From: Pristiophorus japonicus
Taxonomy: Eukaryota
Direction of reading: 5' to 3'
DNA: 64,000 nucleotides
Assembly: GCF_044704955.1 (NCBI RefSeq)
Contig: NW_027254549.1
Coordinates: 62,001-126,000 of the forward strand
The notes below the pieces were generated by a model. That model made no database searches. It was not told where the DNA came from and saw nothing but the letters and a program-made list of their open reading frames with translations. This document shows positions 20,401 to 38,987 of the stretch, in pieces (position 1 is the first letter of the stretch; each line of letters begins with the position of its first letter). Position numbers and translations under genes: made by a program.

Positions 20401-20715
20401 GTAATGTGGCCCTTTTTGCTTTTTGCCTTAGGTTTCTCTGCCCTCCACTTTTACTTTGCTTCTTTGTATCTTTTGTTTCTGCCCCCATTCTACTTCCCTC
20501 TGTCTCCCTGCATCGGTTCCCATCCACCTGCCATATTAGTTTAACTCCTCCCCAACAGCACTAGCAAACACTCCCACTTGGACATTGGTTCCAGTCCTGC
20601 CCAGGTGCAGACCTCCGGTTTGTACTGCTCCCACCTCCGCCAGAACCGGTTCCAATGTCCCAAAATTTGTATCCCTCCCTTGTGCACCACTCCTCAAGCC
20701 ACGTATTCATCTGAG
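17481..20715 (-). mobile_element. CR1 LINE (ORF1 end plus broken ORF2)
   Basis: APE fragments (CLNARS, GVVYRPP) and RT fragments (YLDFQKAFD, FADD) spread over several frames. Confidence 0.95.
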
Positions 20716-20840
20716 TCAGCGATTGTTAAAATGGCCTAGTTTAATTCTGGTCTGGTTTGAGAGTTCGAATGCTGGTTCTATTCCCGGGAGCTCCGGCCGT
20801 TCCCGGGCTGTGTATTGCTCTCCTAAGCCGGTCATTTTAG

Positions 20841-27067: not shown

Positions 27068-27477
27068 TTTGTGTTCAGATGTTTACAAGTTGAATTTTTT
27101 ATTTACTTTGTGGGCGTTGCTTTCTTGGGTTTTGCTGATTTGGCCTTGGCCCTCGGTTTTTCCACCTTTTTGGCCGCCTTCACCTTTGCGCCCGAGGCCT
27201 TCTTGGGGCTCTTGGGCTTCGCCGCCGCCGCCTTCTTCCTAGCCGCCGCTTTCGCTGTCTTTTTTACTGTTGGCGCCTTCTTGACCGGAGATTTCTTCGC
27301 TGCTGGTTTCTTGGCCGAAGATTTCTTGGCTGCTGGTTTCTTGGCCGGAGATTTCTTGGCTGCTGGTTTCTTGGCTGGAGTTTTACATAGAAACATAGAA
27401 AATAGGTGCAGGAGTAGGCCACTCGGCCCCTCCAGCCTGCACCGCCATTCAATGAGTTCATGGCTGAACATTCAACT

Positions 27478-30464
27478 TCAGTACCCCATTCCTGCTTTCT
27501 CGCCATACCCCTTGATCCCCCTAGTAGTAAGGACCTCATCTAACTCCTTTTTGAATATATTTAGTGAATTGGCCTCAACAACTTTCTGTGGTAGAGAATT
27601 CCATAGGTTCACCACTCTCTGGGTGAAGAAGTTCCTCCGCATCTCGGTCCTAAATGGCTTACCCCTTATCCTTAGACTGTGACCTCTGGTTCTGGACTTC
27701 CCCAACATTGGGAACATTCTTCCTGCATCTAACCTGTCTAACCCCGTCAGAATTTTAAATGTTTCTATGAGGTCCCCTCTCATTCTTCTGAACTCCAGTG
27801 AATACAAGCCCAGTTGATCCAGTCTTTCTTGATAGGTCAGTCCCGCCATCCCAGGAATCAGTCTGGTGAACCTTCGCTGCACTCCCTCAATAGCAAGAAT
27901 GTCCTTCCTCAGGTTAGGAGACCAAAACTGTACACAATACTCCAGGTGTGGCCTCACCAATGCCCTGTACAACTGTAGCAACACCTCCCTGCCCCTGTAC
28001 TCAAATCCCCTTGCTATGAAGGCCAACATGCCATTTGCTTTCTTAACCGCCTGCTGCACCTGCATGCCAACCTTCAATGACTGATGTACCATGACACCCA
28101 GGTCTCTTTGCACCTCCCCTTTTCCTAATCTGTCACCATTCAGATAATAGTCTGTCTCTCTGTTTTTACCACCAAAGTGGATAACCTCACATTTATCCAC
28201 ATTATACTTCATCTGCCATGCATTTGCCCACTCACCTAACCTATCCAAGTCGCTCTGCAGCCTCACCGCATCCTCCTCGCAGCCCACACTGCCACCCAAC
28301 TTAGTGTCATCCGCAAATTTGGAGATACTACATTTAATCCCCTCATCTAAATCATTAATGTACAGTGTAAACAGCTGGGGCCCCAGCACAGAACCTTGCG
28401 GTACCCCACTAGTCACTGCCTGCCATTCTGAAAACTACCCATTTACTCCTACTCTTTGCTTCCTGTCTGACAACCAGTTCTCAATCCATGTCAGTACACT
28501 ACCCCCAATCCCATGTGCTCTAACTTTGCACATCAATCTCTTGTGTGGGACCTTGTCGAACGCCTTCTGAAAGTCCAAATATACCACATCAACTGGTTCT
28601 CCCTTATCCACTCTACTGGAAACATCCTCAAAAAATTCCAGAAGATTTGTCAAGCATGATTTCCCTTTCACAAATCCATGCTGACTTGGACCTATCATGT
28701 CACCTCTTTCCAAATGCACTGCTATGACATCCTTAATAATTGATTCCATCATTTTACCCACTACCGATGTCAGGCTGACCGGTCTATAATTCCCTGTTTT
28801 CTCTCTCCCTCCTTTTTTAAAAAGTGGGGTTACATTGGCTACCCTCCACTCCATAGGAACTGATCCAGAGTCAATGGAATGTTGGAAAATGACTGTCAAC
28901 GCATCCACTATTTCCAAGGCCACCTCCTTAAGTACTCTGGGATGCAGTCCATCAAGCCCTGGGAATTTATCGGCCTTCAATCCCATCAATTTTCCCAACA
29001 CAATTTCCCGACTAATAAGGATTTCCCTCAGTTCCTCCTCCTTACTAGACCTCCCGACCCCTTTTATAACCGGAAGGTTGTTCGTGTCCTCCTTCGTGAA
29101 TACCGAACCAAAGTACTTGTTCAATTGGTCCGCCATTCCTTTGTTCCCCGTTATGACTTCCCCTGATTCTGACTGCAGGGGACCTACGTTTGTCTTTACT
29201 AACCTTTTTCTCTTTACAAATCTATAGAAACTTTTGCAATCCGTCTTAATGTTCCCTGCAAGCTTCTTCTCATACTCCATTTTCCCTGCCCTAATCAAAC
29301 CCTTTGTCCTCCTCTGCTGAGTTCTAAATTTCTCCCAGTCCCCAGCTTCGCTGCTATTTCTGGCCAATTTGTATGCCACTTCCTTGGCTTTAATACTATC
29401 CCTGATTTCCCTTGATAGCCACGGTTGAGCCACCTTCCCTTTTTTATTTTTATGCCAGACAGGAATGTACAATTGTTGTAGTTCATCCATGTGGTCTCTA
29501 AATGTCTGCCATTGCCCATCCACAGTCAACCCCTTAAGTATCATTCGCCAATCCATCCCAGCCAATTCACGCCTCATACCTTCAAAGTTAGCCTTCTTTA
29601 AGGTCTGGACCATGGTCTCTGAATTAAATGTTTCATTCTCCATCCCAATGCAGAATTCCATCATATTATGGTCACTCTTCCCCAAAGGGCCTCGCACAAC
29701 GAGATTGCTAATTAATCCTCTCTCATTACATAACACCCAGTCTAAGATGGCCTCCCCCCTAGTTGGTTCCTCGACATATTGGTCTAAAAAACCATCCCTT
29801 ATGCACTCCAGAAAATCCTCCTCCACCGTATTGCTTCCAGTTTGGTTAGCCCAATCTATGTGCATATTAAAGTCACCCATTATAACTGCTGCACCTTTAT
29901 TGCACGCACCCCTAATTTCATGTTTGATGCCCTCCCCAACATCACTACTACTGTTTGGAGGTCTGTACACAACTCCCACTAACGTTTTTTGCCCTTTGGT
30001 GTTCTGCAGCTCTACCCATATAGATTCCACATCATCCAAGCTAATGTCCTTCCTAACTATTGCCTTAATCTCCTCCTTAACCAGCAATGCTACCCCACCT
30101 CCTTTTCCTTTTATTCTATCCTTCCTGAATGTTGAATACCCCTGGATGTTGAGTTCCCAGCCCTGACCATCCTGGAGCCACGTCTCCGTAATCCCAATCA
30201 CATCATATTTGTTAACATCTATTTGCACAGTTAATTCATCCACCTTATTGCAGATACTCCTTGCATTAAGACACAAAGCCTTTAGGCTTGTTTTTTTAAC
30301 ACCCTCTGTCCTTTTAGAATTTTGCTGTACAATGGCCCTTTTTGTTCTTTGCCTTGGGTTTCTCTGCCCTCCATTTTTCCTCATCTCCTTTCTGTCTTTT
30401 GTTTTTGCCTCCTTTTTGTTTCCCTCTATCTCCCTGCATTGTTTCCCATCCCCCTGCCATATTA
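27478..30464 (-). pseudogene. CR1 ORF2 (APE endonuclease plus reverse transcriptase) with one TAG
   Basis: ORFs 28435..30384 and 27478..28416 share a frame; TAG at 28435-28437 is TAC (Tyr) in the sister copy near 45945; the frame is open up to the ORF1 stop. Confidence 0.93.
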
Positions 30465-31409
30465 GTTTAACTCCTCCCCAACAGCACTAGCAAACACTCC
30501 CCCGAGGACATTGGTTCCGATTCTGCCCAGGTGCAGACCGTCCGGATTGTACTGGTCCCACCTCCCCCAGAACCGGTTCCAATGCCCCAGGAATTTGAAT
30601 CTCTCCCTGCTGCACCATTGCTCAAGCCACGTATTCATCTGAGCTATCCTGCAATTCCTACTCTGACTAGCACGTGGCACTGGTAGCAATCCCGAGATTA
30701 CTACTTTTGAGGTCCTACTTTTTAATTTAGCTCCTAGCTCCTTAAATTCATTTCGTAGGAACTCATCCCTTTTTTTACCTATGTCATTGGTACCAACATG
30801 CACCATGACAACTGGCTGTTCTCCCTCCCTTTTTAGAATGTCCTGCACCCGCTCCGAGACATCCTTGACCCTTGCACCAGGGAGGCAACATACCATCCTG
30901 GAGTCTCGGTTGCGGCCGCAGAAACGCCTATCTATTCCCCTTACAATTGAATCCCCTATCACTATCGCTCGCCCACTCTTTTTCCTGCCCTCCTGTGCAA
31001 CAGAGCCAGCCACGGTGCCATGAACTTGGCTGCTGCTGCCTGCTCCTGATGAGTCATCCCCCTCAACAGCACTCAAAGCAGTGTATCTGTTTTGCAGTGG
31101 GATGACCACAGGGGACCCCTGCACTACCTTCTTTGCACTACTCTTCCTGCAGGTCTTCCATTCCCTCGCTGGCTGTGGACCCTTCTCCTGCGGTAAGACC
31201 AACTCGCTACACGTGATACTCACGTCATTCTCAGCATCGTGGATGCTCCAGAGTGAATCCACCTTCAGCTCCAACTCCGCAACGCGGACCGTCAGTAGCC
31301 GGAGGTGGACACACTTCCCGCACATGTAGTCGTCAGGGACACTGGTATTGTCCCCGTGTTCCCACATGGTACAGGAGGAGCATATCACACGACCGAGCTG
31401 TCCTGCCAT
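30462..31409 (-). CDS. CR1 ORF1: zinc finger/leucine zipper plus SGNH esterase domain
   Basis: CSSC...CGKC, heptad leucines, GDSIVRG, HVGTNDI and DGLHL motifs. Confidence 0.92.
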   Translation of the reverse strand: MAGQLGRVICSSCTMWEHGDNTSVPDDYMCGKCVHLRLLTVRVAELELKVDSLWSIHDAENDVSITCSELVLPQEKGPQPAREWKTCRKSSAKKVVQGSPVVIPLQNRYTALSAVEGDDSSGAGSSSQVHGTVAGSVAQEGRKKSGRAIVIGDSIVRGIDRRFCGRNRDSRMVCCLPGARVKDVSERVQDILKREGEQPVVMVHVGTNDIGKKRDEFLRNEFKELGAKLKSRTSKVVISGLLPVPRASQSRNCRIAQMNTWLEQWCSRERFKFLGHWNRFWGRWDQYNPDGLHLGRIGTNVLGGVFASAVGEELN

Positions 31410-32070
31410 GACTTAACCCTTAGATACACTTAAATTGCCGACAACAATGTTAAAAGTTACTGACTAATAAAGAAAAAGAAAAACTACTCACCAATCAGCA
31501 GCCAATCACTTACCACATTGGCTGTGACGTCACCTTTTGATTTCTTTCTACTTCTTTTTTGACTTCTCTCAGCTGGAGCTGCACAAGTACGTCTCTCTCG
31601 ACGCTCCCCGGACTGCTAAGCCTTGGCTGCTGGTTTCTTTACCTTCCTTCCCACTTTCCCCTGGTTTTCCTTCTTAGCGAGTTTGAAGGAGCCCGAGGCG
31701 CCCGTACCCTTGGTCTGCACCAGGAAGCCATTTGTCACATTCTTCTTGATACTGAACCTGATCTGGGACCCGCGCTTCTCCACATCCACGCCTTTGGCCG
31801 CCAGAGCCTTCTTTATCGCGGCCAGAGACATCCCCTTGCGATCGCTGCCATCGGCCACAACCTTGAGGATCTGTTCGCCCAACGGGGGCCGGCTGGCTTG
31901 GAGCGGGGAGCTGCCTTCTTCTTCTTGCTGGGAGCCTTGGTTTGAGCTGCGGCGGCAGGAGGAGCGGTTTCGGCGGCTGCAGTGTCAGTCATGTCGGCGG
32001 CTCTGTGGAAAATCTCTCTGACAGTCAGAGCTCGGTCAGAAATGAAACGGGAGGCGGCGGCACAGAGCAA

Positions 32071-37500: not shown

Positions 37501-38987
37501 GCCCTTTTGGATTTTTGTCTTGGGTTTCTCTGCCCTCCACTTTTACTTTTCTTCTTTCAATCATTTGCTTCTGTCCCCATTTTACTTCCCTCTGTCTCCC
37601 TGCATAGGTTCCCATCCCCCTGCCATATTAGTTTAACGCCTCCCCAACAGCACTAGCAAACACTCCCCCTAGGACATTGGTTCCGTTCCTGCCCAGGTGC
37701 AGACTGTCCGGTTTGTACTGGTCCCATCTCTCCCAGAACCGGTTCCAATGTCCCAGGAATTTGAATCCTTCCCTTCTACACCACTCCTCAAGCCATGTAT
37801 TCACCTGAGCTATCCTGCAATTCCTACTCTGACTAGCACGTGACACTGGTAGCAATCCTGAGATTACTACCTTTGAGATCCTACTTTTTAATTTAGCTCC
37901 TAGCTCCCTAAATTCAGCTTGTAGGAGCTCATCCCATTTCTTTACCGATATCTTTGGTACCTATATGCAGCACGATAACTGGCTGTTCACCCTCCCCCTT
38001 CAAAATGTCCTGCAACCGCTCCGAGACATCCTTGAACCTTGACCTGGGAAGCAACATACCATTGTGGCCACAGAAACGTCTATCTATTCCGATTACAATA
38101 GAATCCCCTACCACTATTGCTCTCCCACTCTTTTTCCTGCCCTCCTGTGCAGCAGAGCCACCCACAATGCCATGAACTTGGCTGCTGCTGCCCTGCCCTA
38201 TGAGTCATCCCCCCAACAATACCCACAGCAGTGTATCTGTTTTGGCGGGGGATGACCGCAGGAGACCTCTGCACTGCCCTTCCTGTTGGCCATCCATTCC
38301 CCATCTGTCTGTGTAACCCTTACCTGCGGTAAGACCAATTCACTAAACGTGCTATTCATGGCATCCTCAGCATCATGCATGCTCCAGAGTGAATCCACCC
38401 ACAGCTCCAGTACCGCAATGCAGTCTGTCAGAAGCTGCAGCAGAGTACACTTCCTGCATATGTAGTCGTCAGGGACACTGGAAACGTCCCTGAGTTCCCA
38501 CATAATACAGGAGGAGCATGACACCTGTCTGAGCTCTCCTACCATGAGTTAACCCTTAGATCTACTTAATTTGGCAACAACAATGATAAAGGTTACCCAC
38601 TGATAGGGAAAATAAAAATAAAAACTACTCACCAATCACCAGCCAATCACTTACCCCCTTGGCTGTGACGTCACCTTGTGATTTCTTTCTACTTCTTTGT
38701 TTACCTTCTACCCCTGCACCTGCACCAGCAGGCCTCTCCGACTGTTGGGTCTTTTATAGGCCTCTCCGATGCTGCCCCAGACTCCCGCTGCTCGAACTCC
38801 CGCCTCTCCGACTGTTGGGCCTTTTATAGGCCTCTCCGATGCTGCCCCAGACTCCCACTGCTCGAACTCCCGCCTCTCCGATGCCGAGCCTTTTATAGGC
38901 CTCTCCAACACTGCTCCGGACTCCCGCTGCTCAAACTCCTGTCTCTCCGATGCCGAGCCTTTTATAGGCCTCCCTGACACTGCCCCT
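34578..38987 (-). mobile_element. Full-length decayed CR1 nested in the RTE
   Basis: ORF1 pieces 37628-38545 and ORF2 pieces; interrupts the RTE between GFRPLR and GTMDM. Confidence 0.93.
38728..38985 (-). repeat. CR1 5' UTR tandem monomers (69-70 bp), each with a TATA box
   Basis: cttttatagg (CCTATAAAAG on minus) at 38751, 38821, 38890 and 38959. Confidence 0.85.

Follow-up and report, generated by a model that had tools for sequence, protein, structure and literature searches.

The question raised by this locus is how a ribosome reaches the second reading frame of a CR1 retrotransposon when ORF1 closes with a stop codon and ORF2 lies in the -1 frame. The DNA analysed (hereafter the window) comprises 64,000 nucleotides of the shark Pristiophorus japonicus, whose genome measures 5.9 Gb. 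The translation of ORF2 in LINEs has been studied in L1, SART1 and Zorro3. Our literature search, outside whose reach the original CR1 papers lay, returned no frameshift report for CR1, and the words 'frameshift', 'slippery' and 'overlap' never occur in a 2026 survey of vertebrate CR1-group elements (PMC13343379). An earlier note on this DNA had read the junction as a candidate -1 ribosomal frameshift signal that a G-quadruplex might stimulate. As a whole, that reading is partly supported: the frameshift receives strong comparative support, extends to CR1 of sharks and birds and has the canonical U_UUA_AAC as its site; the quadruplex fares less well. Judging from these sequence comparisons, it is likely that CR1 elements of sharks and birds use a programmed -1 frameshift at this heptamer to make an ORF1-ORF2 fusion.

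The CR1 copies of the window

The element is a CR1-clade LINE with an esterase ORF1, and both the ORF1 esterase and the APE and RT domains of ORF2 were found (Table 1). The esterase domain of ORF1 is recognised as PF13472 (E 2.7e-11), and the ORF1 profile matches the ZfL2-1 esterase (PDB 4c1b, E 8.8e-45). The placement in CR1 rather than L2 is presumed; the ORF1 homologs range from sharks to reptiles and birds, and the 3' end carries short tandem repeats (TTTCTATG-type in the full-length copy). The full-length copy is inserted in a histone H1-like sequence and has one premature stop in ORF2, within the RT (28437-28435).

Table 1. Coordinates of the features of the CR1 copies in the window
Feature	Position	Strand	Remarks
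Full-length CR1 LINE copy, ~4.2 kb	27385..31621	-	Ends read from sequence
ORF1, 315 aa from first ATG	30462..31409	-	N-terminal Cys motif and SGNH esterase; ends ...GEELN*
Heptamer G_UUA_AAC, in phase with ORF1	30465..30471	-	U_UUA_AAC elsewhere among families sampled
ORF1 stop TAA	30462..30464	-	Adjoins heptamer on its 3' side
TAG closing the -1 (ORF2) frame	30487..30489	-	Five codons 5' of heptamer
G-tract GGGGG-AT-GGG, candidate stimulator	30445..30454	-	Runs 30454-50 and 30447-45; first starts 10 nt 3' of heptamer; position common to shark and bird-type CR1; reads Q-G-D-G in ORF2 frame
GGG runs three and four	30422..30434	-	30434-32 and 30424-22; with them a three-tier G-quadruplex is possible, mostly in window's family
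First in-frame ORF2 ATG	30382..30384	-	29 codons past first heptamer codon of -1 frame; position varies between subfamilies
Lys/Arg-rich linker, shift site to endonuclease	30295..30464	-	Length family-dependent, -1 frame kept
ORF2 frame, APE endonuclease and reverse transcriptase	27478..30486	-	PF03372, PF00078
Heptamer of second, older copy	20539..20545	-	In-frame ATG at 20488
Heptamer of third, older copy	37631..37637	-	In-frame ATG at 37580

What had been described in these copies is confirmed, with one point that misleads. ORF1 ends in GAG TTA AAC TAA on the minus strand, the -1 frame is open from 30486 and reads VKLIWQGDG on into the endonuclease, and the heptamer is present in both other copies; over the two strands of the 64 kb, the pattern [G/T]TTAAACTA[A/G] has exactly 3 matches, each at one of these CR1 junctions. 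The four G-runs downstream are in place, and the first of them is indeed broken in the 20.5-kb copy. The ATG at 30384 is missing from the other two copies, as had been observed, but in each of these another in-frame ATG stands ten codons further upstream. An ORF2 without AUG is therefore not shown by the window copies taken on their own; that part of the claim holds in other families. The linker of the 37.6-kb copy carries a stop and a one-base loss. The three copies belong to one family and are not independent evidence; the argument against chance is drawn from divergent families instead.

Conservation of the ORF1 end and of the heptamer

Of 87 ORF1 homologs in which G-x-H stands close to the C terminus (from sharks, rays, coelacanth, eel, Xenopus, turtles, lizards and snake), 82 terminate in LN, nearly always equally far from the G-x-H; 94 of the 99 bird-type proteins that end at this place do so too. 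At the DNA level, which covers one shark genome and bird-type contigs (other vertebrates being represented by proteins), codons were counted in 149 in-register copies, bearing in mind that copies of one family are not independent of each other. The terminal Leu codon is TTA in 132/132, against 31/884 of the other Leu codons, and the terminal Asn codon is AAC in 130/135, against 204/451. Outside the window's family, the free third base before Leu is T in 61/65 cases, compared with 348/2062 elsewhere. This base is T in all other families sampled, giving U_UUA_AAC, and G_UUA_AAC dominates in the window's family only; in phase with ORF1, the U form occurs at 89 and the G form at 34 of 156 loci. 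Where two families have the same amino acid, they share its codon in 39-60% of cases at codons -25 to -4, against 100% at the terminal Leu. Conservation at the nucleotide level thus exceeds what the protein needs in both the codon and the between-family comparisons. In the 131 copies whose stop is in register, the heptamer is followed by TAG (73), TAA (57) or TGA (1).

With the same flanks, the shark genome contains 23842 exact matches to the G form and 4637 to the U form; the synonymous, motif-breaking TTG change is rare, its 124 matches being comparable to the 209 for two non-synonymous changes taken together. Two of these genome counts weigh against frameshifting: the commonest form is the imperfect G form, and the synonymous AAT variant (about 418, by subtraction) is roughly three times as frequent as TTG. 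The AAT variant leaves the XXXYYYZ pattern intact.

In contigs from 4 of 16 sequencing runs, three other organisms mostly carry the U form at position 30471; no change at 30465-30470 was found among the 40 of 132 matches listed, and no joint at the ORF1-ORF2 junction was found in the same contigs, whose RNA nature is only guessed, so that no conclusion on expression or splicing is drawn. The tree with a G-heptamer clade gives that clade weak support (65/84) and has long-branch warnings, and only 2x2 counts were used from it. An amniote-type query gave no match in the shark's own genome, and the viral and prokaryote collections gave distant SGNH proteins only; L155, being bacterial, was dropped as a homolog, and row L174, with wrong coordinates, was left out of alignment A4.

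Frame and start codons of ORF2

The main linker-length classes (91, 136, 145, 178 and 190 nt) differ in size, and ORF2 stays in the -1 frame in 5/5. This frame is open in 44/58 copies, against 1/58 and 2/58 for the other two, and is open from the site in 49 of 57 stop-free linkers; just upstream of the heptamer it is closed, and an ATG occurs within its open upstream stretch in 3/129 copies. Purifying selection on the linker amino acids of sharks in this frame was not detected (pN/pS 1.7-1.9, 3 pairs).

Start codons in the ORF2 frame depend on the family. In one shark family (c7, one exact junction pattern of which has 2684 genomic matches), 10 of 14 stop-free copies lack an ATG before the first conserved Asn of the endonuclease, and the codons concerned have a pN/pS of 0.31-0.65 among the 18 pairs listed. 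An in-frame linker ATG is present in 28/29 stop-free copies of the window's family, and one lies within 4 codons of the shift site in 4/6 stop-free bird-type copies, which makes reinitiation possible in these two groups. In the shark families no conserved AUG in the ORF2 frame lies on or close to the stop of ORF1, and one was seen in some bird-type copies only; between subfamilies the ATG stands at codon 3-4, 19, 22 or 29, or there is none.

Natural ORF1-ORF2 fusion proteins were also sought, and the 6 longer matches were mostly gene-model chimeras. Two stingray proteins (P0123 and P0042) run continuously from the esterase through ...GFKL... into the endonuclease. We did not retain them as a natural in-frame family and take them to be copies or models in which an indel lies a short way upstream; they would then be evidence of an open -1 frame in rays.

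Candidate stimulators downstream of the heptamer

A GGGG is found between +8 and +20 in 113/130 copies. This shorter G-tract, about 10 nt downstream, is common to the families, unlike the four-run form: four GGG runs occur in 35/46 copies of the window's family, 0/38 of a second shark family, 7/23 of a third, 2/8 of a further group and 0/15 of the bird-type copies. A G-quadruplex as general stimulator was thus rejected, the four runs not being kept in all users of the site. The spacer of 10 nt is also longer than the optimum of 6-8 nt given for G4-stimulated shifting in PMC3919603.

No Watson-Crick alternative emerged: RNAalifold found 0 consensus pairs over 14 junctions, and 7 of 8 single folds were no better than shuffles. 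On these secondary-structure predictions, a conserved hairpin and, less directly, a pseudoknot were set aside. Long-range pairing of the G-tract in the full-length copy gave interrupted duplexes of about -20 kcal/mol at best (without control) and was not retained either.

Alternative explanations

Ribosomes might instead terminate at the ORF1 stop and restart on ORF2 nearby, with an AUG as in SART1 or without one as in L1, the conserved bases then being a reinitiation signal. SART1 offers a precedent with its UAAUG stop-start (excerpt of PMC3708506), the start of mammalian L1 ORF2 is thought to be AUG-independent (excerpts of PMC5009743 and PMC1965478), and the ATGs of the window's family and of the bird-type copies are in agreement with such a restart. 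However, their place shifts between subfamilies, and restart at an AUG could use any frame, whereas the five main length classes without exception keep -1. Moreover, the conserved bases make up exactly an in-phase XXXYYYZ heptamer, and the variants that occur in large numbers (base 1 G/U, base 7 C/U) fit known or pattern-conforming slip sites. We regard reinitiation as unlikely; in families with an AUG, it could operate alongside frameshifting.

The junction might also hold another RNA or DNA signal, be it a splice acceptor or a site of protein binding, packaging or polymerase slippage. Conservation at the nucleotide level does reach into the stop (TAR) and the G-tract; a conserved sequence does not by itself tell which mechanism it serves. 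A splice acceptor agrees poorly with the TAA of 57/131 in-register copies, which leaves no AG there, and with the purine-rich bases upstream; three-base runs are rather short for a polymerase to slip on. Signals of this kind, which would leave both the translation of the endonuclease start in AUG-less families and the fixed -1 phase unexplained, appear distinctly improbable. Even less credence can be given to a protein constraint, in which Leu-Asn is needed at the C terminus of the esterase and the heptamer merely results from the codons inherited for it. Asn316 is invariant in an alignment of 47 proteins, but Leu has six codons and only TTA is used at this place, the wobble base before it is T though the residue varies freely (A, T, S, G, V, C, D), and nearby synonymous sites are largely randomised between families. 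On these sequence comparisons, the protein constraint is largely refuted.

Proposed mechanism and comparison with known systems

Under the frameshift reading, a minority of ribosomes would slip by -1 at the in-phase U_UUA_AAC (G_UUA_AAC in the window's family) before the ORF1 stop, by tandem slippage of tRNA-Leu and tRNA-Asn from UUA AAC to UUU AAA or GUU AAA. The predicted transframe peptide is ...GEELN-LIWQGDG and the esterase-endonuclease-RT fusion would measure about 1310 aa, a few such molecules being made beside abundant ORF1p, as Gag-Pol is beside Gag. Stimulation is the step of which we are least sure. GGGGG-A(N)-GGG, the G-tract 10 nt past the heptamer, is the strongest candidate and may act through a bound protein or as a G-quadruplex, and the four-run form may be a late addition in the window's family, whose heptamer is of the less perfect G form. 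More tentatively, we suggest that a single coronavirus-type -1 shift has made a Gag-Pol-like esterase-endonuclease-RT fusion in CR1, which dominates among the retrotransposons of most vertebrate groups, since the origin of jawed vertebrates, driven without a pseudoknot by the conserved single-stranded G-tract (a G-rich counterpart of the C-rich, protein-bound stimulator of arteriviruses) or, in the window's shark family, by a natural G-quadruplex; taken in full, this scenario is open to considerable doubt. If frameshifting is true, the commonest retrotransposon of birds, reptiles and sharks uses a retroviral solution, the CR1 RT is tethered to the esterase ORF1p, the ORF2 starts of CR1 as annotated are wrong, and the junction offers an old, naturally occurring -1 site whose stimulator is not base-paired.

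The nearest parallels are the nidovirus ORF1a/1b junction (coronaviruses, equine arteritis virus) and retroviral gag-pol, which share with CR1 a downstream enzyme ORF in -1 and the logic of a structural-plus-polymerase fusion. According to passages of PMC5009743, U_UUA_AAC ranks with the heptamers most prone to shifting, and equine arteritis virus uses G_UU(A), the G form being an accepted imperfect type; heptamer and phase are the same in nidoviruses and CR1. The differences are that CR1 is a non-LTR retrotransposon, that its ORF1 stop follows the heptamer immediately and that the predictions give neither a pseudoknot nor a stem-loop at 5-9 nt. The closest LINE precedents are the APE-type elements TRE5-A and TRE3-A of Dictyostelium, known here from one statement in a review legend that ORF2 requires a -1 frameshift (PMC5911963); these belong to another clade, with an unrelated ORF1, in an amoeba and not a vertebrate. 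Mammalian L1 and silkworm SART1 resemble CR1 in their bicistronic RNA and unconventional route to ORF2, but L1 has an inter-ORF spacer and unconventional initiation (PMC5009743) and SART1 its stop-start (PMC3708506), neither of them producing a fusion.

For the stimulator, two comparisons are relevant. In synthetic G4 constructs, UUUAAAC followed by G-runs gave up to ~7% shifting (excerpt of PMC3919603), and natural G4-stimulated frameshifting had no known use as of 2016, according to a passage of PMC5009743. CR1 differs from these constructs by its spacer, by its long loops (2, 10 and 7 nt) and by the absence of the four runs from two of the other three main CR1 groups and their rarity in the third. 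In the -2/-1 frameshift of PRRSV nsp2, the stimulator is a PCBP-nsp1beta complex on CCCANCUCC, a short single-stranded motif that lies 11 nt beyond the shift site on its 3' side, described in excerpts of PMC5009743 and PMC8915115 as acting with no downstream structure. The CR1 G-tract has nearly the same spacer (10 nt) and is G-rich where the PRRSV motif is C-rich, its binding protein being hypothetical.

The ORF1-ORF2 junction in the window

The earlier note had proposed that this CR1 family joins ORF1 to ORF2 by -1 ribosomal frameshifting on a G_UUA_AAC heptamer, with a downstream G-quadruplex as stimulator. The junction it described, with ORF2 in the -1 frame, was borne out at three sites, and the pattern [G/T]TTAAACTA[A/G] has three matches in the whole window, all of them at these CR1 junctions. 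The G-runs and the ATG at 30384 are present as reported, and 30384 is the first ORF2 ATG of its copy, but the other two copies carry different in-frame ATGs (20488 and 37580), which had been missed. At 90% identity to its sawshark match, the ORF1 protein of the window points to a shark as host, as does the genome size of 5.9 Gb.

Features of the CR1 copies and their surroundings in the window
Feature	Position	Strand	Description
Junction	30471-30462	minus	G TTA AAC TAA (sequence read)
ORF1	31409-30462	minus	SGNH esterase protein, C-terminus GEELN
ORF2 frame	open from 30486	minus	-1 relative to ORF1; VKLIWQGDG, basic linker, then endonuclease and RT
Further junctions, same sequence	20545 and 37637	minus	sequence comparison
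Full-length CR1 copy	about 27385-31621	minus	one premature stop, inside RT
Histone H1-like gene	31992-31622 and 27384-27103	minus	interrupted by the CR1 copy
ATTAAACTAG-bearing sequence	20745 and 24256	minus

The H1-like gene, identified by reading the translation, is split within KKPAAK repeats without obvious target-site duplication, and its 5' part is also frameshifted. The sequence bearing ATTAAACTAG is possibly a repeat derived from a small structured RNA; its copy at 20745 adjoins the 5'-truncated CR1 copy with the 20.5-kb junction.

Conservation of the heptamer

The junction set comprises 156 distinct loci, from searches of the window's own genome (5.9 Gb) and from bird-type CR1 on metagenome contigs. 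Two own-genome queries included the junction (one as DNA, one as protein); three others and the locating profile excluded the last residues. Conservation across copies was confirmed, as 123 of the 156 loci have an in-register heptamer (U_UUA_AAC 89, G_UUA_AAC 34), with 4 more off by one base. A register test blind to the last six codons removed 7 loci. In the remainder, TTA encodes the terminal Leu in 132/132 cases (31/884 at other Leu codons) and AAC the terminal Asn in 130/135 (204/451 at other Asn codons); in copies from outside the window's family, T occupies the fourfold-degenerate third position preceding the terminal Leu in 61/65 (348/2062 elsewhere).

Since copies are related, the comparison between families is the informative one. 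Shark and bird-type ORF1 ends share about 35% DNA identity, and synonymous divergence at the endonuclease start is high between families (pS 0.75-0.98). For amino acids shared between families, codon identity is 39-60% over codons -25 to -4 but reaches 100% at the terminal Leu and 93-100% at the terminal Asn. The junction is a real, deeply conserved feature, and these codon comparisons indicate that the constraint at the ORF1 end acts on nucleotides.

The terminus is also conserved as protein. Among 121 ORF1 proteins (the query and the best 120 of 254 matches; named sources include sharks, rays, coelacanth, eel, mormyrid, Xenopus, turtles, lizards and a snake), 87 have a G-x-H motif 18-32 residues before the C-terminus, 82 of them with LN as the last two residues; the remaining 34, truncated, extended or without the motif, were left out of the count. 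Of the 120 listed matches to a bird-type ORF1, with birds as named sources, 105 extend to the last helix and 99 stop at the expected place, 94 of them with LN. The preceding residue varies freely. Protein constraint on the esterase C-terminus, which these LN ends would suit, is highly improbable next to the invariant TTA. One shark-type ORF1 protein (P0008) appears at NCBI under Pseudomonas aeruginosa, as an SGNH hydrolase from a 4-kb contig; contamination is the likely reason.

Exact-match counts in the own genome, with flanks held fixed, gave 23842 matches for the G form, 4637 for the U form and 124 for the synonymous TTG variant; by subtraction of the G form, TTG and AAT combined amount to 542 and two non-synonymous transitions combined to 209. 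The motif-breaking TTG is at decay level. AAT, which keeps the slip pattern, is commoner (about 418); a small lineage or a bias towards C-to-T change could account for this excess. Taken alone, these counts are of low power because families stem from few masters. The window's family alone accounts for at least 28,000 exact matches of 26 nt across the junction, so very many copies extend to ORF1, which is unusual for CR1, described in the part of PMC4316615 covered as mostly 5'-truncated. One rare variant has eight matches at about 40-kb spacing (G000:C10:199866956-200151500, own genome), which point to a tandem segmental repeat.

ORF2 frame and start codons

Heptamer-to-endonuclease lengths fall into classes of 91 (3 copies), 136 (5), 145 (16), 178 (31) and 190 nt (3), all in the -1 frame; a further 6 copies at 177 nt and 3 at 179 nt differ from the 178-nt class by a single base. 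In the five main classes, the stop-free -1 linker recurs in 44/58 copies (0 frame 1, +1 frame 2). Over the 105 copies tested, the linker is stop-free in the endonuclease frame in 57 (-1 in 49, +1 in 6, 0 in 2). On the upstream side, a stop ends the -1 frame five codons ahead of the heptamer in 93/129 copies, and this frame contains an ATG in 3/129.

No conserved ORF2 ATG emerged. In the shark family c7, 10/14 stop-free copies have no ATG ahead of the endonuclease's first conserved Asn. Three examples have their first Met at codon 120-134, whereas the endonuclease domain begins at codon 45-51, and the ATG-less endonuclease-start codons have pN/pS of 0.31-0.65. ATG positions differ between families: the window's family has a linker ATG in 28/29 stop-free copies, mostly at codon 19 or 29, and bird-type elements have one at codon 3-4 in 4/6 stop-free copies. 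These ATGs speak against the frameshift reading, as does a pN/pS greater than 1 for the shark linker read in the -1 frame; the ATGs would suit reinitiation after the ORF1 stop, which we consider unlikely beside ATG positions that move between families.

The downstream G-tract

In 113/130 copies GGGG is present between +8 and +20, and in alignments of shark and bird-type junctions the G-tracts coincide or are offset by one base at most. Four GGG runs, proposed earlier as a G-quadruplex, are common in the window's family (35/46; 31/34 G-heptamer and 4/12 U-heptamer copies) but absent from c7 (0/38) and bird-type elements (0/15), with 7/23 in c3, another shark group, where they are partly long G homopolymers, and 2/8 in others. 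Read in the ORF2 frame, the tract gives G-[DE]-G, and GGG is a favoured Gly codon here, so RNA and protein constraint are inseparable; from either cause, the codons directly after the heptamer are constrained, and in the shark families they precede any AUG. Consensus base pairs were absent over 14 aligned junctions, and one of eight single folds beats shuffles (z -2.3), its stem starting 27 nt past the heptamer.

The 10-nt CR1 spacer is longer than the 6-8 nt given as optimal for G-quadruplex-stimulated shifting in the part of PMC3919603 covered, and close to the 11 nt between shift site and protein-bound motif of PRRSV (PMC5009743, first 300,000 characters), of which the G-tract may be a counterpart. 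In four older shark copies (L032, L036, L058, L163) the tract just past the ORF1 stop has grown to homopolymers of 12-25 nt. Four bird-type loci (L093, L094, L105, L115) have an inverted repeat of the CCAGGC...GCCTGG type behind it, about 27-52 nt after the stop, too distant to act as a classical stimulator; shark copies lack it.

Proposed mechanism and precedents

With heptamer, frame and nucleotide conservation all as in a -1 frameshift site, the CR1 junction probably works like its viral counterparts; the earlier reading stands in these respects, its four-run G-quadruplex not being general. Most probably, some ribosomes would slip -1 on the last two ORF1 codons, yielding a fused protein of some 315 + 995 aa with the transframe peptide ...GEELN-LIWQGDG, while the majority would terminate at the adjoining UAR. 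That the heptamer bases serve as another nucleic-acid signal would suit the nucleotide constraint, and is improbable beside the -1 linkers.

Literature searches turned up no CR1 slippery site described before, and no paper combining CR1, retrotransposon, slippery and frameshifting; the original CR1 papers (Haas 1997 and 2001, Kajikawa 1997, Kapitonov and Jurka 2003) and Repbase entries lay outside their coverage, and an earlier mention in them is possible. 'CR1' does not occur in the first 300,000 characters of PMC5009743; the term search also covered parts of PMC13343379, PMC3708506, PMC1965478, PMC5006619, PMC3905857, PMC8915115 and PMC11835228 (first 300,000 characters). In the parts covered, a +1 shift or readthrough is suggested for Paramecium LINEs (PMC5405496), and TRE5-A and TRE3-A require a -1 shift (PMC5911963).
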